A DNA stretch of 9,694 nucleotides from Longivirga aurantiaca (GCF_042660085.1 NZ_JBHSTI010000006.1:1-9694); one strand, 5' to 3'. Shown: positions 1-9,694, counted from the stretch's first letter. Numbers and translations are program-made. Notes: generated from the sequence alone by a model not told the origin.

Positions 1-860
1 CCGCGGACGATCGAGCCCTCCTCGCGGCCATCGCGTCCTACGGGGCCATCGCGCTCAACGGCCTCGCGCACCGAGGTGGCGCGGAGTCGGTGCTGGGTCG
101 ACTGATCTCGGCCACGTCCGAGCGCGATGCCGTCGAGATCCTCGAGCGTCTCGGCTGGGCTGCCGGGACCGCCGTGGTCCCCGTGGTGATCCGGTGCGAC
201 CCCGAGCTCGCCCTGACCAGTCAACGCAGCCTCGACAGCGTGACCCAGACCGTGGAGTCGGTGTTCACCGGGACGCGCGGACGCGCGATCCCGGCGACCA
301 CAGGGGTTGTCGGGGCCCTGCTGACGGTCCCCGCCGGACACGTCGATCCCGCGGCCCTCGCATCCGAGCTGCGGCACGACATCGCCGGAGCGTTGCGGGA
401 CAGGGGGCAGTCCGCCGGCGCGGCGATCGGCGTGGGGCGACCGGCCACCAGCGGGCTGGAGGTCGCGCAGGAGTTCCGATCAGCCGCCTGGGCGGCGACC
501 TGGGCCGCCCTGAGCGAGGACGGGGTCAGGATCGCCCCCGGTGGCGACCAGCGCACGACGCAGCAGCTCTTCACGCTCGAGGTCGAGCTGGCGCCCGCGG
601 TCGCCGAGCAGATCGACCGGATCGGGCGGGTCCAGGCCCACGACCTGCGCCACGGTACGGACCTGCTCGAGACGCTCGCGGTCTTCGTCCGCGAGCGCGG
701 ATCGATCCACCAGACCTCCGAGCAGCTGTTCATCCACCGCAACACCCTGCGGCAGCGCCTCACCAAGATCTCGACGCTCATGGAGCAGCCGATCGAGCGG
801 GTGGAGGACTGGGTCCCGGTGGCGCTCGCGATCCGCGTGCTCCGCTCCCGCACGCCCTGA
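1..860 (+). CDS. PucR/CdaR-family transcriptional regulator, 5'-truncated by the window edge (C-terminal part only)
   Basis: The frame of ORF 90..860 stays open back to position 3 (ADDRALLAAIASYGAIALNG...), so the GTG at 90 is probably not the true start. The C-terminus carries the PucR-type HTH (SEQLFIHRNTLRQRLTKISTLMEQPIE..EDWVPVALAIRVL). This aligns by eye with the C-terminus of the 6834..8705 protein (AEVLGIHRNTLRQRLERITAITGLDLDSADDWLPLQLAVRIV). Stop TGA is at 858-860. Confidence 0.8.
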   Translation, partial: ADDRALLAAIASYGAIALNGLAHRGGAESVLGRLISATSERDAVEILERLGWAAGTAVVPVVIRCDPELALTSQRSLDSVTQTVESVFTGTRGRAIPATTGVVGALLTVPAGHVDPAALASELRHDIAGALRDRGQSAGAAIGVGRPATSGLEVAQEFRSAAWAATWAALSEDGVRIAPGGDQRTTQQLFTLEVELAPAVAEQIDRIGRVQAHDLRHGTDLLETLAVFVRERGSIHQTSEQLFIHRNTLRQRLTKISTLMEQPIERVEDWVPVALAIRVLRSRTP

Positions 861-1096: not shown

Positions 1097-1125
1097 TTGA
1101 CATAGGACAAACTTTGACCTACCTT
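1097..1125 (+). promoter_or_regulatory. Candidate sigma70-type promoter of the mutase operon (-35 TTGACA 1097-1102, 17-nt spacer, -10 TACCTT 1120-1125)
   Basis: This is the only AT-rich island in an otherwise GC-rich 300-bp intergenic region. It has a perfect TTGACA hexamer, a 17-nt spacer and a TANNNT-type -10, about 35-40 nt upstream of the first operon gene. Further TTGAC copies lie at 1090-1094 and 1114-1118. Confidence 0.45.
1103..1121. promoter_or_regulatory. Candidate operator: 19-bp near-palindrome TAGGACAAA-c-TTTGACCTA overlapping the promoter spacer and -10
   Basis: Left half TAGGACAAA (1103-1111); reverse complement of the right half (1113-1121) is TAGGTCAAA. That is 8 of 9 matching positions around centre c1112. 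The position between -35 and -10 is typical of a repressor site. Confidence 0.35.
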
Positions 1126-1160: not shown

Positions 1161-1568
1161 ATGGTCGTGCCAGAGGACAGGTCCGCAGCCGCGGAGGCGG
1201 TGATTCGACTCCGGCTCGCTCCGAGCGATGCGCGCTACGCGGGAGGGCTGGTCGCCGGGTCGAAGGCGATGGAGATCTTCGCCGACCTCGAGACCGAGCT
1301 GTCTCTGCTCGAGGGCGGGGACGAAGGCCTGTGCGTCGCCTACAGCTCGGTGAACTTCCTGGCACCGCTCCGTGTGGGCGACTTCGTCGAGGGCAGGGCG
1401 CACGTCGTCGAGCGCGGCAACACCAGCCGCCTCGTCGAGGCGAGTCTCTACAAGGTCGCGAGCGTGGATGACCGCGGCAGGCTGATCCCCCAGGACGGGC
1501 CGATCCTCGCCGCCACGGCGGTCGCCACGATCGTGGTGGGTCGAGGGTTCGCCGGTCAGGAGAACTGA
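1161..1568 (+). CDS. Hotdog-fold protein resembling beta-alanyl-CoA / 3-aminobutyryl-CoA ammonia-lyases (Acl/Kal type); a thioesterase is the alternative
   Basis: 135-aa ORF with high GC3. The pattern RLRL.PSDARYAGGLVAGSKAMEIFADLETEL....GDEGL.VAY..V.FLAPL.VGDFVEG.A.VVE.GNTS......YKVA matches my recollection of the Acl/Kal signature (DAHY.G.LV.G...F.D..TEL...GD..L..Y..V.FLAP..VGDF.E......GN.S). SD GAGGAGG (1154-1160) abuts ATG 1161, so the in-frame GTG at 1167 (6-nt spacing) may be the real start. Stop TGA is at 1566-1568. Confidence 0.7.
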   Translation: MVVPEDRSAAAEAVIRLRLAPSDARYAGGLVAGSKAMEIFADLETELSLLEGGDEGLCVAYSSVNFLAPLRVGDFVEGRAHVVERGNTSRLVEASLYKVASVDDRGRLIPQDGPILAATAVATIVVGRGFAGQEN

Positions 1569-1569
1569 C

Positions 1570-3060
1570 GTGGCCGGCGCCGCGAGCACCCTCGTCTCCT
1601 GGATCGGCGCTGTGGTCCGGGCCCACCCGAACGACCCCGCCGTGATCTACGAGGGTCAGACCTGGACGTACAAGGAGCTGTGGCAGCGCTCGGCCGTGAT
1701 CGCCCGGGAGCTGCTGGCGTCGGGTGTCCGCCGGGGGGAGGCGGTCGGTCTGGTCGGTGCCAACGAGGCGGTCTACATCGCCACCTACTTCGGGATCATG
1801 CGCGCCGGGGCGACGGCGGTCCCCCTCAACGCCATGCTCGATGCCGCGTCGCTGCGCGACCAGCTCGTGATCGTCGAGGCCCGTACCGTCTTCGTGGGCC
1901 TCGTCGACGCGGAGGTCCGCGACGAGCTCTCCGAGTCCTTCCGGACCCTCCCGATGGGAGGATCGGGCGAGCCGTCGCCACGATCGTCCCTGCCGGCCCT
2001 GGGATCGAGCACGCCGTGCTCGATCATGATGACGAGCGGGTCGACCGGCAGGCCGAAGGGCGCGGTCCACTCCCAGGGGACGATGCTCCACGCCGCCATG
2101 CAGCTGGGATCGGTGTTCCCGTTCGGCTCGGGTCAGCGCGGTGTCGTGTTCCTCCCGCTGTACGCCTGCATCCCGGAGCAGGTCCTCCCGATGCTCTGCA
2201 TGGGTGGTGCCCTGGAGATCCTGCCGCGCTTCGACATCGAGCGCGTGGCCGACGCGTGCTCGCGCGCGACGACCTTCGACGCGGTGCCCACGATCATGGG
2301 CCGGCTCATCGAGCATGCCCCGCTGGAGAAGCTGGCCAAGCTCGAATGGGTGCTGTTCGCCTCCGAGCCCATGCCGCCGGCGCTGCTCCACCGCTGGTGG
2401 GACGAGCTGCCCACGGTCGAGACCCACCAGTTCTACGGGATGACCGAGATCCTGCCGCTCACGGCGGCGCCTCATTGGATCCTGCGCGCCGAGCCGAGCA
2501 CGGTGGGTCGGGCCTTCCCGACCACGAGGCTCGAGGTCCAGGCGGACGATGGCTCCGGCCACTCCGATGGGCAGGGCGAGCTCGTCGGGAGCAGCCCCGC
2601 TCGGCTCCTGAGCTACTACAACGACCAGGACGCCACGGCTCGCGCACTCTCCTCGGACGGCGCCTTCCACACCGGCGACCTCGGCCGCATCGGCGATGAC
2701 GGGCTGGTCTATCTCACCGGCCGGCTCAAGGACGTCATCATCTCCGGCGGCATCAACATCGCCCCGGCGGAGATCGAGCACGTCGCCTGCAACCATCCCG
2801 ACGTCCTGTCCGCGATCGTCGTCGGGATCCCCAGCGAGCGGTGGGGGGAGACTCCGGTGGTCGTCGCCGTCGCCAAGCCAGGTCGTCGGCTGACCGCGGA
2901 CGACATCCTCGCCCACTGCCGGGACAACCTGTCCAGCTACAAGCGCCCCTCCGGTGCTGCCGTCGTCCCCACCATCCCGGTCACGGGGATCGGCAAGGCG
3001 GCCAAGTCGTCGGTCCGGCAGCAGATCATGGATGGGGTGATCCAGCTTGTTCGCGCCTGA
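1570..3060 (+). CDS. AMP-dependent acyl-CoA synthetase/ligase (ANL superfamily), probable short-chain substituted-acid CoA ligase
   Basis: 496 aa. Motifs: TSGSTGRPKG (2032-2061), FYGMTE, HTGDLGRIGDDGLVYLTGRLKDVIISGGINIAPAEIE, and C-terminal GIGKAAK with the catalytic-type Lys. The GTG start is 1 nt after the upstream stop, with AGGAG at 1558-1562 (7-nt spacing). Confidence 0.92.
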   Translation: MAGAASTLVSWIGAVVRAHPNDPAVIYEGQTWTYKELWQRSAVIARELLASGVRRGEAVGLVGANEAVYIATYFGIMRAGATAVPLNAMLDAASLRDQLVIVEARTVFVGLVDAEVRDELSESFRTLPMGGSGEPSPRSSLPALGSSTPCSIMMTSGSTGRPKGAVHSQGTMLHAAMQLGSVFPFGSGQRGVVFLPLYACIPEQVLPMLCMGGALEILPRFDIERVADACSRATTFDAVPTIMGRLIEHAPLEKLAKLEWVLFASEPMPPALLHRWWDELPTVETHQFYGMTEILPLTAAPHWILRAEPSTVGRAFPTTRLEVQADDGSGHSDGQGELVGSSPARLLSYYNDQDATARALSSDGAFHTGDLGRIGDDGLVYLTGRLKDVIISGGINIAPAEIEHVACNHPDVLSAIVVGIPSERWGETPVVVAVAKPGRRLTADDILAHCRDNLSSYKRPSGAAVVPTIPVTGIGKAAKSSVRQQIMDGVIQLVRA

Positions 3061-3976
3061 CGCCCTGCGCGCCATGGTGGAGGGCGGGAGAGCGGGCTCG
3101 TGGGGTCCGCTCGCCCGGGCCATCACCGTCGTCGAGAACAGCGCGCCGTGGGACGTGGTCATCCCGCGGGCCGAGAAGCCCGCGCACATCGTGGGGATCA
3201 CCGGGCCACCGGGGGCGGGGAAGTCGACCCTGACGGGGGCTCTCATCGCGGAGTACGCCGACGCCGGATGTCGCGTCGCCGTGCTGGCGATCGACCCGTC
3301 GAGCCCCCTGAGCGGCGGGGCCGTTCTCGGTGATCGCCTGCGGATGGAGACCCACCTGAACGGTCGGCCCGACGTCTTCGTCCGGAGCCTCGCCAGCCGG
3401 GGGACGCACGGGGCCGTCGCCGGCTCCACCCGCAACATCGCGCGGCTCCTCGAGCTCTCCGGCCTGTTCGACGTCATCCTCATCGAGACCGTGGGGGCCG
3501 GCCAGACCGAGGTCGCGATCGTCGAGGTGGCCGACACGGTCGTCCTGGTCACGGTCCCCGGGCTGGGGGATGCCGTGCAGACGATCAAGGCAGGGCTCAT
3601 GGAGGTGGCCGACATGTTCGTCGTGAACATGTCGGACCGCCCCGGAGCGGCGGAGACGGCGCGTCACCTGCGGCTCGCGGCCGGGCGCGGGAGCGCCGTG
3701 CTCCAGACGACGGCCCGCGACGGTGTCGGGGTCGACGAGGTCCGGCTCGCGCTGGACGCGCGCTGGGAGGAGCTCTCGCGGGACGCGCGGCTGGAGGAGC
3801 TCAGGGCACGCAAGTGGGGGACCGACGCGGCGCTGATCGCGGAGGCGTGGGTCGGGGCATGCGCGCACGCGCTGCCGATGGAAGACGGCCGAGGCATGGC
3901 TCAGACCGTGGACGACATCCTCAGGGATGCGTCGGAGCGGTGGCAGATTCAACGACAGGAGCGCAGTGATGACTGA
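3047..3976 (+). CDS. meaB: MeaB/ArgK-type G-protein chaperone for a B12-dependent acyl-CoA mutase
   Basis: 309 aa. P-loop GITGPPGAGKSTL (about 3194-3232). Switch I-like AIDPSSPLSGGAVLGDRLRM. Switch II ETVGAGQTE. G4-like VNMSD (3626-3637). N-terminal LARAITVVEN is typical of MeaB. The TTG start at 3047 (GGGGTGA 6 nt upstream) overlaps the ligase stop by 14 nt. In-frame ATG 3074 is an alternative start without an SD. Confidence 0.9.
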   Translation: MFAPDALRAMVEGGRAGSWGPLARAITVVENSAPWDVVIPRAEKPAHIVGITGPPGAGKSTLTGALIAEYADAGCRVAVLAIDPSSPLSGGAVLGDRLRMETHLNGRPDVFVRSLASRGTHGAVAGSTRNIARLLELSGLFDVILIETVGAGQTEVAIVEVADTVVLVTVPGLGDAVQTIKAGLMEVADMFVVNMSDRPGAAETARHLRLAAGRGSAVLQTTARDGVGVDEVRLALDARWEELSRDARLEELRARKWGTDAALIAEAWVGACAHALPMEDGRGMAQTVDDILRDASERWQIQRQERSDD

Positions 3977-5639
3977 GACCACCGACGCACGGGTCGAGGC
4001 GTGGAAGCGGGAGAACCTCGCTCGGGACTACGAACGGGTCCCACCGCGACGTGAGCGCTTCGAGACCTTGTCCGGGATCGAGGTCGACGACATCTACACG
4101 CCGGCATCGGTCAGCGGGTTCGACCCCGACCGGGATCTCGGCCTCCCCGGTCAGTACCCCTTCACCCGTGGTGTGCACGCCAGCATGTACCGCGGGCGCC
4201 CGTGGACCATCCGCCAGGTGGCCGGGTTCGGCCAGGCCGAGGACACGAACAACCGCTACAAGTACCTGCTCAAGACCGGTCAGACGGGGTTGTCGACGGA
4301 CTTCGACCTGCCGACGCTGCTCGGCTACGACTCCGATCACGAGGTCTTCCGTCGCGAGGTCGGGAAGATCGGCGTCGCCGTCGACACCGTCGTCGACATG
4401 CATGCGCTGTTCGACGGGATCCCGTTGGACCAGATCTCGACGTCGATGACCATCAACCCGACCGCGGCGATCCTGCTCGCCATGTACCGGGTGGTCGGCG
4501 ACGAGCGCGGGTACCCGGGCCATGTGCTCACCGGCACGACGCAGAACGACATCCTCAAGGAGTACACGGCTCAGAACGAGTTCATCTTCCCGCCCCTTCC
4601 CGCCGTGGAGCTCGTCGTGGACACGATGGAGTACGGGGCGGACGTCATGCCGCGCTTCAACCCGTTGAACGCCTGCGGGTATCACATCCGCGAAGCGGGC
4701 GCGACCGCGGTGGAGGAGGTGGGGCTGACCCTCAGCGCCGCCCTGTGCTACCTCGAGCACGCGGTGGCGCGCGGCATCGACGTGGACCGGCTGGCCCCGC
4801 GGGTCTCGTTCTTCTGGGACGTCCACAACAACTTCTTCGAGGAGGCGGCGAAGCTGCGGGCCGCTCGGCGGCTCTGGGCGCGTCTCATGCGGGAGCGGCT
4901 CAACTGCAAGGACCCGAAGTCGTGGCTGATGCGTGCCCACTGCCAGACCGCCGGGGTGTCGCTGACCGCTCAGCAGCCGTACAACAACGTGGCGCGGACT
5001 GCGCTCCAGGCGATGGCAGCCGTGCTGGGCGGGACGCAGTCCCTCCACACCAACTCCCTCGACGAGGCGCTGTCCATCCCGTCGGAGAGCGCGATCAAGA
5101 TCGCGGTCCGGACGCAGCAGATCATCCTCCACGAGACGGGTGTCGCCGATGTCGTCGATCCCCTCGCCGGTTCCTACTTCGTCGAGGCGCTCACCACGCA
5201 GATCGAGGAGGAGGCCCTCGCGCTGATCGAGCGCATCGACGCGATGGGCGGGATGATCCAGGCCGTCGAGTCGGGGTACGCCGGTCAGCTCATCGCCGAC
5301 TCGGCGTGGGAGCAGCAGGTCCGGCTCGAGAGCAACGAGCAGATCCAGGTGGGCGTGAACGACTTCGTGGACGAGGGCGAGCAGCAGCAGATCGAGATCG
5401 ACCGTCCGATCCCGGGGGTCATGGAGCGCCAGATGCAGCGGCTCGCCGACGTCAAGCGCTCGCGCGAGCAGAAGCGCGTGACGGAGACGCTTCGCGCCAT
5501 CGAGTCCGCCGCACCGAACCTGCACACCAACCTGATGCCGCTCATCGAGGACGCCGTGCGCGCTCGTGCCTCCGTCGGGGAGATCTCCGACGTCCTCCGG
5601 GGCACCTGGGGCCAGTACCAGCCCTCAACCGTCTTCTAG
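3969..5639 (+). CDS. Adenosylcobalamin-dependent acyl-CoA mutase, large (substrate-binding TIM-barrel) subunit; 2-hydroxyisobutyryl-CoA mutase (HcmA)-like
   Basis: Hallmarks of the methylmalonyl-CoA mutase family: [109 protein letters not shown] chose ATG 3969 (AGGAG 3957-3961, 7-nt spacing; 8-nt overlap with the meaB-like stop) over the track's 3927. This gives 556 aa. Stop TAG is at 5637-5639. Confidence 0.93.
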
Positions 5640-5664
5640 TCCAGCAACCGAGGAGATCACTGAC

Positions 5665-6102
5665 ATGGAAACCCCCTCTGGGACGAGGTCCGCCCCGCTC
5701 AAGGTCGTCGTGGCCAAGCCGGGCCTGGACGGGCACGACCGTGGCGCCAAGGTCGTGGCGCGGGCGCTGCGCGACGCCGGGATGGAGGTCGTCTACACCG
5801 GCATCTACCAGACCCCCGAGTCGATCATGCGCGCGGTCATCCAGGAGGACGCCGACGTCCTCGGTCTGTCGAGCCTCTCGGGCGCCCATCTCGAGTACGG
5901 CGAGGAGCTCGGCCGGCTCCTCAAGGAGAACGACAGGGCCGACGTGCTCTTCGTGGCCGGCGGGACGATCCCGCCCGAGGACGCGGCGGTGCTCAAGGAG
6001 CACGGCGTGCACGAGGTCTTCGGCCCCGGCACGCCGACCACGACCCTGGTCGAGTACGTGCGGCAGTACGCGCGGAACGTGTCCGCGATCCCCCGGGGGT
6101 AG
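5665..6102 (+). CDS. Acyl-CoA mutase small subunit, cobalamin-binding (Rossmann-like B12 domain; HcmB/IcmB-like)
   Basis: 145 aa from ATG 5665 (GAGGAG 5650-5655). DxHxxG base-off/His-on motif LDGHDRG (5728-5745, His codon 5734-5736), followed by SSLSG and VAGGTIP. The N-terminal 33 codons of track ORF 5566..6102 are Pro/Ser-rich, overlap the end of the large subunit and are unlikely to be coding. Confidence 0.92.
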
Positions 6103-6106
6103 TCGA

Positions 6107-6694
6107 GTGGTCACGCTGACGAGGATCTACACGCGGGCAGGGGACGGCGGGCAGACCCGGCTCGGCGACATGAGCCGGGTCAGCAAGCTGGACTCGCGTC
6201 TCCAGGCCTACGCCGATGTCGACGAGGCCAACAGCCACATCGGGCTCGCGATCTCCCTGGGGGGCCTCGGCGGCATGGAACCGGACGTCGCCGATGTGCT
6301 CCGCCAGATCCAGAACGAGCTGTTCGATGTCGGGGCGGACCTGTGCCGGCCCGTCGTCGAGGCGGACTCGGCGCCGCACCTCAGGATCGAGCCCGCCTAC
6401 ATCCAGCGGCTCGAACGGTGGTGCGACACGTTCAACGCACCCCTGCCGGAGCTGAGCTCCTTCGTCCTGCGGGGCGGCACGCCGGCCGGAGCCGCGATCC
6501 ACGTCGCCTGCACGGTGACCCGGCGAGCCGAACGCTCGACGTGGGCGGCGATCGAGGAGCACGGATCAGGTGTGAACGTCCTTGCCGCGAGCTACCTGAA
6601 CCGTCTCAGCGATCTGCTGTTCGTCCTGGCCCGGTACACGAACCGCCACCACGGAGATGTCCTGTGGGAGCCGGGACGAGCCCTGGACCTGTGA
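6107..6694 (+). CDS. PduO-type ATP:cob(I)alamin adenosyltransferase (MMAB-like)
   Basis: 195 aa from GTG 6107, 4 nt after the upstream TAG. The N-terminus VTLTRIYTRAGDGGQTRLGDMSRVSKLDSRLQAYADVDEANSHIG is the classic PduO/MMAB signature. It continues with IQNELFDVGADL, FVLRGGTPAGAAIHVACTVTRRAER and LNRLSDLLFVLAR. Only the last 195 codons of track ORF 4202..6694 are real. Confidence 0.92.
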   Translation: MVTLTRIYTRAGDGGQTRLGDMSRVSKLDSRLQAYADVDEANSHIGLAISLGGLGGMEPDVADVLRQIQNELFDVGADLCRPVVEADSAPHLRIEPAYIQRLERWCDTFNAPLPELSSFVLRGGTPAGAAIHVACTVTRRAERSTWAAIEEHGSGVNVLAASYLNRLSDLLFVLARYTNRHHGDVLWEPGRALDL

Positions 6695-6833
6695 GGCGCC
6701 GGGTCCCGGTCGGCTCGGAGCCGCACCCGACCCGCTTCTCACCCACGGCCCCGACGGCGGGCTTCCGCAGCCGGATCACCTGGCCTGGGCCACCGCCGCG
6801 TGACACCATGCAGAAGGACCTGGGGACGAGGAG

Positions 6834-8705
6834 GTGAGGTCCCTGACGGCAGAGCCGGTGCTCGATGCGATGGCGAGGCCCGGTGCCGCGGACCTCACCG
6901 AGGTCGGGCGCGCCCTGGACCGGGCCGAGCGGCTCCGGTCCGCACTCGCGCAGCTGCTGACCGCTGTGGGGATGAACCTCGAGTTCTCCGAGTTCACGGG
7001 CCGTGCGGTGGAGATCGTCAGGGATGCGGTCGACGCCGATGGAGTCTTCCTGCACCTGTGGGACTCCGAGCGCCAGATGCTGGTCCTGACGGCCGCCACC
7101 GAGGGTGTCGCGAAGGGCTACCTCCATCGGATCGAGGCGCAGCTCGGGCAGGGGCTCAACGGGCTCGCCGCGCTCCGCCAGCAGCCCGTGGTCGTCAATG
7201 CGGCTCCTGCCGACGACCCGCACTTCCGCAGCTTCCCCGAGCTGAACGAGGGCGACTACCAGTCGACCGCCAAGCTGCCGCTGTTCCGCGCGGATCGGAC
7301 TCTCGTCGGGGTGCTCTCGCTCAACGCCCGCACGCCGGGTCGGTTCGGGGACTCCCATCTGGCCGTGGCGACGGAGCTGGCGGGACTGTTCGCGGGACTG
7401 ATCGACTCCGCGTCGACCGGCGGCGCGGTGGCCCGCCGTGCCCGCATGCTCGACACGCTCACCGAGCTCACCGCCTCCCTGGCATCCGCGGGTCCGGCGT
7501 ACGAGGTGCTCGGCAGCGTGACCAATGCGGCCGTGTCCGCCATGGATGCCGACCTGTCCGTCCTGGTGCTCCCCGACCCGGAGACCGGTGAGCTCGCGGT
7601 GCGCTCCGTCGCCCCGTTCAGGTCGGACGTCCTGGACGAGCTGGCGGCGCTGGGGGTTCGTCCAGGCATGTCGGTGCCGCATGCCGAGGCGAGGTCGTCG
7701 CAGCTGCAGGGGTACCTGAAAGGCGACCTCGTCGACCGATTCGGCTTCATGGAGTCTGCGGCCCTCGCCCCCGGTGACGACAGCGCGGGGTTCCTCGCCT
7801 GCTACCGGCGCCGCAGGTTCTGCTCGGAGGATCTCCATCTGCTGTCCGTGATGGCTCATCACGTCGGCCTGGCGCTCATGGACCCGTCCACGCGCTGGGA
7901 CGGACGTGACCAGTCCTGTCGCGTCGTGTTCGAGCGTCTCGCCCGCGGAGTCTTCGATGACGAGACCGCGTCCCTGGCGAGCGGCATGGGTCTTGATCCG
8001 GCCAAGCCGCTGGTGCTGCTACGTGGCCGGCTGGCCGCGTCGGCCACGCCGCGTCGCGACGCCTCGCCCCCGGACATCAGCCGTGCTGTCGAGTCCGTCA
8101 TGTCGATGATCGTCAGCTTCTACCCCGGGTCCCTGACCTACGTGGCCCTCAATCAGATCTACGGACTCATCGAGGTCGCTGACAGCGATGGAGACCGCAG
8201 GCTGCTCAAGCGCCTGGGCGAGCTCTCGGATCGCGCCGGTCAGAGGGGCGTCGTGCTCGAGGCGGGTGTGAGCGGTGTCGTGCCTCACGCGGTCGACATC
8301 CCGCGGGCCTTCCGCGAGTCCAACGACGCGCTGGTGATCGGGGCGAAGGTCGGCGGATCGCGGGTCAATCATTACGAGGACCTCGCCGGCTCCATGCACC
8401 TGTATCGGGTGGCCGTCGACCCGGCCTTCGATCACGACCCGACGGTCTCCCAGCTCCTCCACCTGCTGGAGCACGACCGGAGACGCGGTACCCGGCTGCT
8501 TCCGACGCTCGACGTCTACCTGTCGTCGCGAGGAAACGGCAGCCACGCGGCAGAGGTGCTCGGAATCCATCGGAACACCCTGCGTCAACGTCTCGAACGG
8601 ATCACCGCGATCACGGGACTCGACCTCGATTCGGCCGACGACTGGCTCCCGCTCCAGCTCGCCGTGCGGATCGTGGCCATCCGGCGATCCGCGGCTCAGT
8701 CCTGA
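6834..8705 (+). CDS. Tandem-GAF-domain PucR-family transcriptional regulator
   Basis: 623 aa. There are two GAF-like sensor regions, roughly residues 25-200 and 205-350 (e.g. VFLHLWDSERQMLVLTAA...LPLFRADRTLVGVLSLNA, and LSVLVLPDPETGELAVRS...AGFLACYRRRRFCSEDLHLLSVMAHHVGLAL). A central PucR-type domain follows, then the C-terminal HTH AEVLGIHRNTLRQRLERITAITGLDLDSADDWLPLQLAVRIV. The GTG start overlaps SD-like GAGGAGG, so the exact start is uncertain. Confidence 0.88.
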   Translation: MRSLTAEPVLDAMARPGAADLTEVGRALDRAERLRSALAQLLTAVGMNLEFSEFTGRAVEIVRDAVDADGVFLHLWDSERQMLVLTAATEGVAKGYLHRIEAQLGQGLNGLAALRQQPVVVNAAPADDPHFRSFPELNEGDYQSTAKLPLFRADRTLVGVLSLNARTPGRFGDSHLAVATELAGLFAGLIDSASTGGAVARRARMLDTLTELTASLASAGPAYEVLGSVTNAAVSAMDADLSVLVLPDPETGELAVRSVAPFRSDVLDELAALGVRPGMSVPHAEARSSQLQGYLKGDLVDRFGFMESAALAPGDDSAGFLACYRRRRFCSEDLHLLSVMAHHVGLALMDPSTRWDGRDQSCRVVFERLARGVFDDETASLASGMGLDPAKPLVLLRGRLAASATPRRDASPPDISRAVESVMSMIVSFYPGSLTYVALNQIYGLIEVADSDGDRRLLKRLGELSDRAGQRGVVLEAGVSGVVPHAVDIPRAFRESNDALVIGAKVGGSRVNHYEDLAGSMHLYRVAVDPAFDHDPTVSQLLHLLEHDRRRGTRLLPTLDVYLSSRGNGSHAAEVLGIHRNTLRQRLERITAITGLDLDSADDWLPLQLAVRIVAIRRSAAQS

Positions 8706-8733: not shown

Positions 8734-9659
8734 TCACCCCTCGTTCCGCCCGCTCTTCGCGAGCCGCAGCTCCCTGACGACGTCGGCGACCATGTGGACC
8801 GATGCGTGATCGAGGATGTTGCCGAACTCCACCACGCGCACGCGTCCCTCGAGCTGGCGGCGCAGCTCAGGCATCTCGCTCGGAACGACGACGAGGTCCA
8901 CCCCCTGAAGATCCTCGTCGGAGGTGCCGCGCAGCACCGAGATGTTCGAGAAGCCAGACTGGGTGAGCGAGTCCCGGATGCTGACCGCCTGCTCCTCGGT
9001 CGAGTAGCAGATGCCCACCGACCGGCTCCGGGGCACCTGGGAGATCTGGACGAGCGTCTGCACGTGGGGTCCCACGACGAGTCCTACGACCTCGGTCCTC
9101 GGCCGACGCATCATCTTGCGCACCTCGGCGAGATGGAAGAACGTCGTCAGGACGAGATCCGGGCTCTCGTCGGCCGGCTCGAAGGCTCCCAGCACGAGCG
9201 GTCGCACCGGAGTGCCGACGTGCGCCTCGATCTCGCTCGCGAAGTACTTGGCCCGGTCGCTGTTGCACTCGACGAAGACGATCTCCAGGTTCCCCGCGTG
9301 CGCCCGGGCGGCGAAGGATACCGCGAGCGAGTGCACCTCGGCGGCGGCCAGTCCGAGCGCCATGCTCTCCGCCACCGCCGACTCCAGCAGGGCTGCCGCG
9401 CGGTCGCCGTCGACCGAGGATGGCTGCGTCCGGTCACCACTGACGACGACCATGCCGTTGCGGCCCTTGGACTCGAGCAGACCCGTGTCTCTGAGCTCTG
9501 CGTAGGCGTGGGCGACGGTGTTCCGGTTGATGTGGAGTTGTCGGCCAGCAGGCGTGCGCTGGGGAGCCGCTCACCCTCCTTGAGCTGGCCCATCTCGATC
9601 ATGAACGCGAGCTGCGACACGATCTGGCGGTAGACAGGCAGGTCGGAGTGGTGCGTCAC
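8734..9659 (-). pseudogene. GntR-family transcriptional regulator with an uncharacterised ~230-aa C-terminal effector domain, interrupted by an apparent 1-nt deletion in the HTH
   Basis: Frame A (9659 downwards) reads MTHHSDLPVYRQIVSQLAFMIEMGQLKEGERLPSARLLAD, then junk. Frame B has a stop at 9571-9573, then reads RQLHINRNTVAHAYAELRDTGLLESKGRNGMVVVSGD... through to 8734. Joining them at about 9540-9542 restores a canonical GntR winged HTH (LPSARLLAD-QLHINRNTVAHAYAELRDTGLLES). The frame stays open upstream of 9659 to the window edge, so the N-terminus could also lie outside the window. Confidence 0.75.
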
Positions 9660-9694
9660 GAAGATGCTGTTGGCAAGGTGGATGCCGTCCTCCA

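Follow-up and report, generated by a model that had tools for sequence, protein, structure and literature searches.

A conserved actinobacterial B12-dependent mutase operon with a Kal/Acl-like hotdog gene, a candidate route for 2-aminoisobutyrate

2-Aminoisobutyrate (AIB), an α,α-dialkyl amino acid, is widely used as a model of a non-metabolisable amino acid, and the only routes for its catabolism that we know of use 2,2-dialkylglycine decarboxylase (DGD) or a monooxygenase. DGD, a pyridoxal phosphate-dependent enzyme that converts AIB to acetone and CO2, has AIB and isovaline as its classic substrates. Kal is the 3-aminobutyryl-CoA ammonia-lyase of lysine fermentation. Here we analyse a window of 9,694 nucleotides (nt) from Longivirga aurantiaca (NZ_JBHSTI010000006.1:1-9694), an actinobacterial segment of 70% G+C, in which a Kal-like gene leads an adenosylcobalamin (AdoCbl)-dependent acyl-CoA mutase operon. 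The closest described mutase systems are those for 2-hydroxyisobutyrate (2-HIBA) in Aquincola tertiaricarbonis, Methylibium petroleiphilum PM1 and Mycolicibacterium sp. ELW1, in which the split mutase HcmAB (2-hydroxyisobutyryl-CoA mutase, HCM), with its own chaperone MeaH and the CoA ligase HCL, circumvents a tertiary carbon by shifting the CoA-carbonyl group to the adjacent carbon (a 1,2-shift); hcm operons are associated with HCL as their specific ligase (PMC7176365). The closest amine system is the gamma-glutamylation pathway for isopropylamine (ipu), found in Pseudomonas sp. KIE171 and on plasmids of Paenarthrobacter aurescens TC1, whose cluster has been published (PMC1713258).

The window operon (positions 1161-6694) consists of six genes on the same strand, encoding in order a hotdog protein, a CoA ligase, a MeaB-type chaperone, the mutase large and small subunits and a PduO-type adenosyltransferase, with gaps of 1-25 nt or overlaps of 8-14 nt between neighbours (Table 1); all six are present where the original prediction, made from the sequence alone, had placed them. 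With the hcm systems the operon family shares a split AdoCbl mutase with its own chaperone, a CoA ligase, a nearby adenosyltransferase, a GntR-type regulator and often a nearby thiamine pyrophosphate (TPP) lyase homolog. Its mutase components carry the general features of AdoCbl acyl-CoA mutases, namely a PF01642 barrel, a PF02310 domain with DGHDRG and a PF03308 chaperone with the P-loop GPPGAGKST. We consider it on balance probable that the six genes make up a self-sufficient route, dependent on CoA and B12, for an α,α-dialkyl amino acid, most likely AIB. The ligase would make 2-aminoisobutyryl-CoA from AIB; the mutase, loaded by the MeaB-like chaperone and the adenosyltransferase, would shift the CoA-carbonyl group to give 3-aminobutyryl-CoA, bypassing the tertiary carbon as HCM does; and the hotdog protein would then remove ammonia to yield crotonyl-CoA for β-oxidation. 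Every substrate and reaction in this scheme is inferred. DGD has the same proposed substrate, but whereas it yields acetone and CO2, the proposed route would keep all four carbons as crotonyl-CoA and free ammonia.

The hotdog protein and the conservation of the operon

The gene identities, the family placement, the conservation of the operon and its neighbourhoods are observed directly. By profile, pairwise comparison and fold, the hotdog protein is closer to Kal and to Acl (beta-alanyl-CoA:ammonia lyase) than to any hotdog family of thioesterases or hydratases, and the original prediction, which had favoured a Kal/Acl-like lyase over a thioesterase or MaoC hydratase, is borne out to this extent. 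Its best curated family was the Kal equivalog NF052388 (E 2.9e-28, 98.6 bits); the best thioesterase profile, YciA, reached 17 bits (E 3e-3), and MaoC profiles gave no match in the domain and family scans. Acl (4MTU) was the top match both in a sequence search of the PDB (8e-13) and in a Foldseek search with the AlphaFold model (pLDDT 86; E 5e-10, TM score 0.78, root-mean-square deviation 1.7 Å, 30% identity), where the runners-up were hexameric thioesterases at 18-24% identity. The protein is 46% identical over 79 residues to a Fusobacterium Kal, which is encoded within a kal-kce-kdd-kamA cluster and scores above the Kal cutoff (196.6 bits on NF052388). In alignments, the family has an invariant Phe where YciA-type thioesterases have the catalytic Asp, and the motifs DA(R/H)Y and [FW][AG]D..TEL are common to the hotdog protein, Acl and Kal. 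Since Kal/Acl comes out best by profile, identity, fold and motif, yet the equivalog score lies under the cutoff, the protein is best described as Kal/Acl-like and is not a strict Kal ortholog. It belongs to the same hotdog subfamily as Kal and Acl, but its family occurs in aerobic Actinomycetota and is tied to a B12 mutase rather than to kce, kdd and kamA. Some hotdog proteins of the operon family also differ from Kal and Acl in being fused to RidA (PF01042, an imine deaminase family), as in locus L053 (6815-7624) and in proteins P0033, P0044, P0076 and P0079; an ammonia-lyase reaction leading to an enoyl-CoA gives no imine and would not account for the fusion.

A locus scan with the hotdog alignment as query, restricted to one genome per species, returned 28 loci. 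In 27 of them, ligase, MeaB and mutase genes come after the hotdog gene, and nearly all of these 27 preserve the order hotdog-ligase-MeaB-large-small. Conversely, all four loci picked through the mutase carry a Kal-like hotdog gene (49-72% identity) together with the mutase signature described below. This arrangement is not due to chance, given the order kept in nearly all hotdog-found loci and the hotdog gene in four of four mutase-found loci. Merging of overlapping loci left 24 independent regions, all in Actinomycetota, with hosts among Solirubrobacterales, Gaiellaceae, Streptomyces (S. boninensis included), Jiangella, Nonomuraea, Nocardioides, Haloechinothrix and Mycobacteriales. The co-occurrence that the original prediction had put forward for checking thus proved strict, whether searched from the hotdog gene or from the mutase: the Kal-like gene is always present in window-type operons, and none is found in the hcm clusters of PM1 and ELW1. 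3-Aminobutyryl-CoA is not a central metabolite, so the proposed route would need a dedicated lyase, which would account for a hotdog gene that is never missing.

The mutase clade and the ligase

On sequence comparison the window mutase, which is 100% identical to a protein of Longivirga aurantiaca, belongs to a clade of its own. The best solved-structure match of the large subunit is HcmA (4R3U, 569 bits; human methylmalonyl-CoA mutase (MCM), 490 bits). Identity to HcmA of PM1 and ELW1 is only 48-49%, against 53% to a Brevibacillus split MCM and 55% to a Deinococcus protein resembling isobutyryl-CoA mutase (ICM); overall, contrary to a premise of the original prediction, the mutase is no closer to HcmA than to these enzymes. 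At positions 90, 117 and 208 of HcmA (numbering checked on the PM1 protein, which has Ile, Asp and Gln there), Val-Asp-Gln (VDQ) is invariant in the window clade, with 27 sequences aligned and more in later sets. HCM has I-D-Q at these positions, MCMs Y-A-R and ICM-like proteins F-A-Q. The roles of Ile90, Asp117 and Gln208 in HCM were reportedly described by Kurteva-Yaneva et al. in 2015. The clade thus shares Asp117 and Gln208 with HCM and differs in Val for Ile90 and in Asn at 209, where HCM and ICM have Lys. Among 150 representatives of mutase clusters formed at 50% identity, none shows the full V-D-Q, I-D-Q is confined to HCM representatives, and one (P0149) combines Val-Asp at 90/117 and Met at 208. 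Neighbour-joining bootstraps recovered the VDQ clade as monophyletic in 100 of 100 replicates, separate from ordinary HcmA, an outcome in favour of the original prediction; only 6 of 100 placed HCM as its sister, and the sister group is not fixed by the tree. These acyl-CoA mutases, found in a new pathway context, probably have a new substrate class.

The ligase also sets the operon apart from the hcm systems. It gave no BLASTP hit at E<1e-3 to HCL of PM1 and ELW1, none of its PDB matches is labelled HCL, and none of the curated families was reached at its cutoff; the PDB entries related to it are generic ligases of fatty-acyl, malonyl and oxalyl type. Its sequence thus places it outside the HCL type, in another ANL subfamily, and the window operon lacks the association with HCL. 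The earlier reading of the ligase as the counterpart of hcl is therefore not upheld, and the likeness in gene content to the 2-HIBA locus does not extend to gene order, which is hotdog-ligase-meaB-large-small in the window and hcmB-hcl-meaH-hcmA in the hcm clusters. The MeaB-type protein is 44% identical to MeaH of PM1.

Candidate substrates and the weight of the evidence

The neighbours of the operon across the 24 regions point toward amino acids and amines. A class-III aminotransferase that is a DGD ortholog lies within 10 kb in nine regions and also in L050; the highest score against PDB 1D7R, the solved Burkholderia DGD, is 580 bits (next family, 229), and 11 of the 12 members of this family in the hotdog-selected loci are 56-100% identical to one another. 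Fifteen of the 24 contain peptidases (S58, M19, S9, M14, M20, M24) or family-5 peptide-binding proteins. Three regions (L017, L026, L027) contain Gln-synt_C, short-chain dehydrogenase/reductase (SDR), Peptidase_C26 and aldehyde dehydrogenase (ALDH) genes, a gamma-glutamylation module for amines, and their Gln-synt_C proteins are 41% identical to IpuC. In six regions, that of L009 (5638-6138) and five others, the DGD and GntR genes are separated by the gene for an aminoacyl-tRNA editing protein of the YbaK/ProX type; such a protein might protect translation from a non-protein amino acid.

For Longivirga, the context is that of an ipu-like cluster. We extended the window through near-identical metagenome contigs (L036/L037). 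Upstream of the operon these carry genes for Peptidase_C26, ALDH, Zn-dependent alcohol dehydrogenase (ADH), ferredoxin and ALDH, followed by cytochrome P450, ferredoxin, reductase and a PucR regulator, and downstream the GntR gene and an amino-acid permease. The upstream genes are orthologous to the TC1 ipu cluster (35-64% identity to AAur_pTC10058-10068 of plasmid pTC1), with 60% for the P450, 63% for the ADH, 64% and 56% for the two ALDHs, 49% for the ferredoxin and 37% for the reductase; the GAF regulator of the window is 34% identical to that of the pTC1 cluster, and the best matches of the P450 all lie on ipu-bearing plasmids. P450, ferredoxin, reductase, ADH, two ALDHs, C26 hydrolase and GAF regulator are thus common to both, whereas ipu clusters have no mutase, MeaB or adenosyltransferase, and alanine, the ipu product, needs no skeleton rearrangement. 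The TC1 cluster does contain a Kal-like hotdog gene (139.5 bits) followed by a CoA ligase gene, without a mutase (L049 1211-3270, AAur_pTC10059/10060). This hotdog protein is annotated as an 'acyl-CoA hydrolase' with its start set too far downstream, and neither it nor the ligase is used in any step of the published ipu pathway. A Rhodococcus megaplasmid locus likewise combines a Kal-like hotdog and a ligase with ipu-type ADH and ALDH.

This ipu context suggests a tert-alkylamine as the source in Longivirga. The ipu-like cluster could make AIB from, for example, tert-butylamine, through gamma-glutamylation, P450 hydroxylation, oxidation of the alcohol and of the aldehyde, and C26 hydrolysis. 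In other genomes, the neighbouring peptidases and peptide transporters suggest that AIB may instead be supplied by AIB-rich peptides. A pathway for AIB would explain the non-HCL ligase as well as the DGD, peptidase, amine-module and ipu-like neighbours.

Several observations weigh against an AIB pathway. The hotdog score of 98.6 bits misses the Kal equivalog cutoff of 160 bits. A gene for the glutamine synthetase-like IpuC is not seen beside the window locus, where the contigs end at the C26 gene. DGD alone already suffices for AIB, and the presence of two routes needs explaining. In the ligase, a Tyr aligns by eye with the amino-binding Asp of nonribosomal peptide synthetase adenylation domains; the same by-eye alignment found no acidic amino-binding residue in the pocket, from which we draw no conclusion. 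In the mutase, the Asp117 carboxylate, which binds the substrate hydroxyl in HCM, is kept and would suit an ammonium group equally; since it would fit both, the pocket residues, which almost match the HCM signature, do not discriminate between OH and NH3+. To our knowledge, 2-hydroxyisobutyryl-CoA is the only known substrate of the actinobacterial 2-hydroxyacyl-CoA lyase, a TPP enzyme whose homologs occur in nine of the 24 regions and lie within the operon in L005 and L052. These homologs share 44-49% identity with the TPP proteins encoded in the 2-HIBA clusters of PM1 and ELW1 and reach 622 bits on the NCBIfam equivalog for the actinobacterial lyase (cutoff 600), an enzyme that cleaves 2-hydroxyisobutyryl-CoA (PMC7176365). 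The TPP lyase may mark a hydroxy-acid substrate; it may provide a B12-independent bypass that acts on the amino analogue and yields an imine, which recalls the RidA-fused hotdog proteins; or it may serve the re-assimilation of acetone. The lyase homologs within or adjoining operons are found at L005 13580-15334, L052 13744-15543 and, in L016/L018, at about 15946-17844; their partner in several loci is a second member of the window-ligase family (60% identical) rather than HCL.

The first of these possibilities leads to a variant 2-HIBA operon, in which the mutase would convert 2-hydroxyisobutyryl-CoA to 3-hydroxybutyryl-CoA and the hotdog protein would be a 3-hydroxybutyryl-CoA dehydratase (for the R-isomer, for example) or a thioesterase. 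The retention of Asp117 and Gln208, the structural match to HcmA and the lyase homologs in nine regions all fit such an operon, as do the GntR-type regulator and a nearby 3-hydroxybutyryl-CoA dehydrogenase, both found in known 2-HIBA clusters. We nevertheless consider it unlikely. The ligase is not of the HCL type, the gene order is different, true hcm clusters have no hotdog gene, and the mutase does not fall within HCM, which came out as its sister in 6 of 100 bootstraps. Furthermore, the hotdog protein resembles Kal and Acl and not MaoC or PhaJ, 3-hydroxybutyryl-CoA needs no special enzyme, and the neighbours are DGD, peptidases and amine modules instead of MpdB/MpdC or alkene oxidation genes.

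The same enzyme logic could also act on another aminoacyl-CoA pair, an assignment that we find doubtful. Candidates are isovaline (as 2-amino-2-methylbutyryl-CoA), 2-aminobutyryl-CoA rearranged to 3-aminoisobutyryl-CoA with methacrylyl-CoA as the lyase product, alanyl-CoA rearranged to beta-alanyl-CoA with acrylyl-CoA as the lyase product, and 3-aminoisobutyryl-CoA rearranged to 4-aminobutyryl-CoA. With Val in place of Ile90 the pocket is larger, the second, paralogous operon or additional large subunit of many genomes suggests more than one substrate, and isovaline, too, is accepted by DGD. ECH_2 proteins (3-hydroxyisobutyryl-CoA hydrolase homologs) in six regions would fit methacrylyl-CoA as the product, and the YbaK-type editing proteins belong to a family with relatives that deacylate 2-aminobutyryl-tRNA. 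Alanine and 2-aminobutyrate, however, have an alpha-hydrogen and are easily transaminated, which leaves a B12 route unneeded, and 4-aminobutyryl-CoA would cyclise. A 3-hydroxyacyl-CoA dehydrogenase gene directly downstream of the operon, found in four regions and in the Longivirga paralog described below, fits a linear C4 product such as that of the AIB route.

Salvage of acetone, in which DGD would turn AIB into acetone, a reversed TPP lyase would join it to formyl-CoA to give 2-hydroxyisobutyryl-CoA and the mutase would form 3-hydroxybutyryl-CoA, is very improbable: DGD and the lyase homolog do occur together in six regions, the ligase resembles small-acid (oxalate, malonate) ligases among others, and an acetone route with lyase and mutase has been proposed for Desulfococcus biacutus (PMC7176365), but the core operon, that of the window included, is usually without DGD and lyase, the Kal-like protein would be left without a role, condensing a ketone in this way is thermodynamically unfavourable, and for the actinobacterial lyase activity was demonstrated in the cleavage direction (PMC7176365).

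Should the AIB assignment hold, alpha-aminoacyl-CoA would be a new substrate class for acyl-CoA mutases, the aerobic Kal-like proteins of Actinomycetota would gain a function and the unexplained hotdog and ligase pair of the published ipu cluster a role, and the mineralisation of tert-alkylamines and AIB-rich peptides in soil would be explained. The route would be the nitrogen counterpart of the pathway from methyl tert-butyl ether through tert-butanol and 2-HIBA. The stronger claim, that these operons represent the first carbon-skeleton mutase acting on an aminoacyl-CoA together with an aerobic Kal-type lyase, in a widespread actinobacterial pathway by which soil bacteria would use α,α-dialkyl amino acids derived from the peptaibols of fungi or from tert-alkylamines (the tert-butylamine side chain of s-triazines, for example), is in our view evenly balanced between right and wrong. 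A search of the literature outside subscription journals found no relevant paper on such a mutase, on AIB-CoA or on a link from tert-butylamine to AIB. The mutase-lyase pair could, in that case, be of use in pathway engineering, to interconvert branched and linear C4 amino acids or for beta-amino acids.

Boundaries, regulators and related loci

Table 1. Features of the Longivirga aurantiaca window (positions counted from its first nucleotide)
Feature	Position	Strand	Basis or remark
GAF/PucR-type regulator, C-terminal 285 amino acids (603 in full contig)	3..860	+	HTH_30 and GGDEF_2; whole gene in L036/L037
Promoter-like TTGACA, 17-nt spacer, TACCTT (tentative)	1097..1125	+	Read from sequence
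Kal/Acl-like hotdog protein, proposed 3-aminobutyryl-CoA ammonia-lyase	1167..1568 (open reading frame from ATG 1161)	+	Kal profile NF052388, 4MTU match
AMP-forming acyl-CoA ligase, non-HCL; proposed AIB-CoA ligase	1570..3060	+	AMP-binding E 8e-60, AMP-binding_C
MeaB-type G-protein chaperone	3047..3976	+	PF03308 E 1e-66; TIGR00750 232.8 bits
Acyl-CoA mutase large subunit, Val90-Asp117-Gln208 (VDQ) clade	3969..5639	+	PF01642 E 2e-204
Mutase small subunit, B12-binding, DxHxxG = DGHDRG	5665..6102	+	PF02310 E 4e-25; TIGR00640
PduO-type ATP:cob(I)alamin adenosyltransferase	6107..6694	+	PF01923 E 3e-57; TIGR00636 157 bits, above cutoff
GC-rich inverted repeat, possible terminator without T-tract	6700..6734	+	3' of last operon gene
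GAF/GGDEF_2/PucR-HTH regulator	6834..8705	+	Domain scan; other loci without counterpart
GntR-type regulator, conserved regulator of the operon family	8734..9694	-	Frameshifted; start codon 2 nt past window end

The hotdog protein has 133 amino acids when read from GTG 1167 and 135 when read from ATG 1161. The GTG is the more likely start, as GGAGG at 1156-1160 lies six bases upstream of it and the database protein (P0001) has 133 amino acids. Upstream, positions 1090-1125 contain TTGAC three times as well as the promoter-like element, with partial conservation 5' of the paralogous Longivirga operon, and this stretch is a candidate promoter or operator. A scan of positions 800-1250 for Escherichia coli-consensus promoters and terminators made no call, TTGACA-17-TACCTT included. 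The Rfam scan found no family at the gathering threshold, and hence no cobalamin riboswitch.

A GntR-type regulator occurs in 17 of the 24 regions and is the conserved regulator of the operon family. Compared with the near-identical contig L036, its gene in the window lacks 1 nt near 9536 (GACAA-CTCC), which shifts the frame within the HTH domain; this is either a real inactivation, with a derepressed operon, or an assembly error. PucR regulators, in which the original prediction had seen a weak pointer to the pathway, were considered as a conserved part of the system and rejected, being found only in Longivirga loci.

Further loci depart from the standard arrangement. Locus L053 encodes a distant split mutase (1863-3918; 48% identical) that also has V-D-Q but shows 'GAYQ' where all other examined mutases show 'GYH', and that adjoins thiolase, class-III aminotransferase, second ligase and Peptidase_M24 genes. 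In L001/L002 (Sphaerisporangium, Dactylosporangium; 11846-13276), MeaB is followed directly by the small subunit, with no large subunit within the 20-kb locus. An extra VDQ-type large subunit (80% identical), without a small subunit of its own, is found in L050 (10816-12528) and L005 (19499-20362), after DGD and M19 dipeptidase genes. Many genomes carry two copies of the operon, as in L009/L013 and L022/L023, and Longivirga is among them: the Longivirga-like contigs L039-L041 (for example L039 9420-16136) hold a paralogous operon with hotdog and mutase proteins 81% and 91% identical to those of the window, followed by genes for the 3-hydroxyacyl-CoA dehydrogenase, an SDR and two Peptidase_C26 proteins. 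The duplicated operons may act on different substrates.

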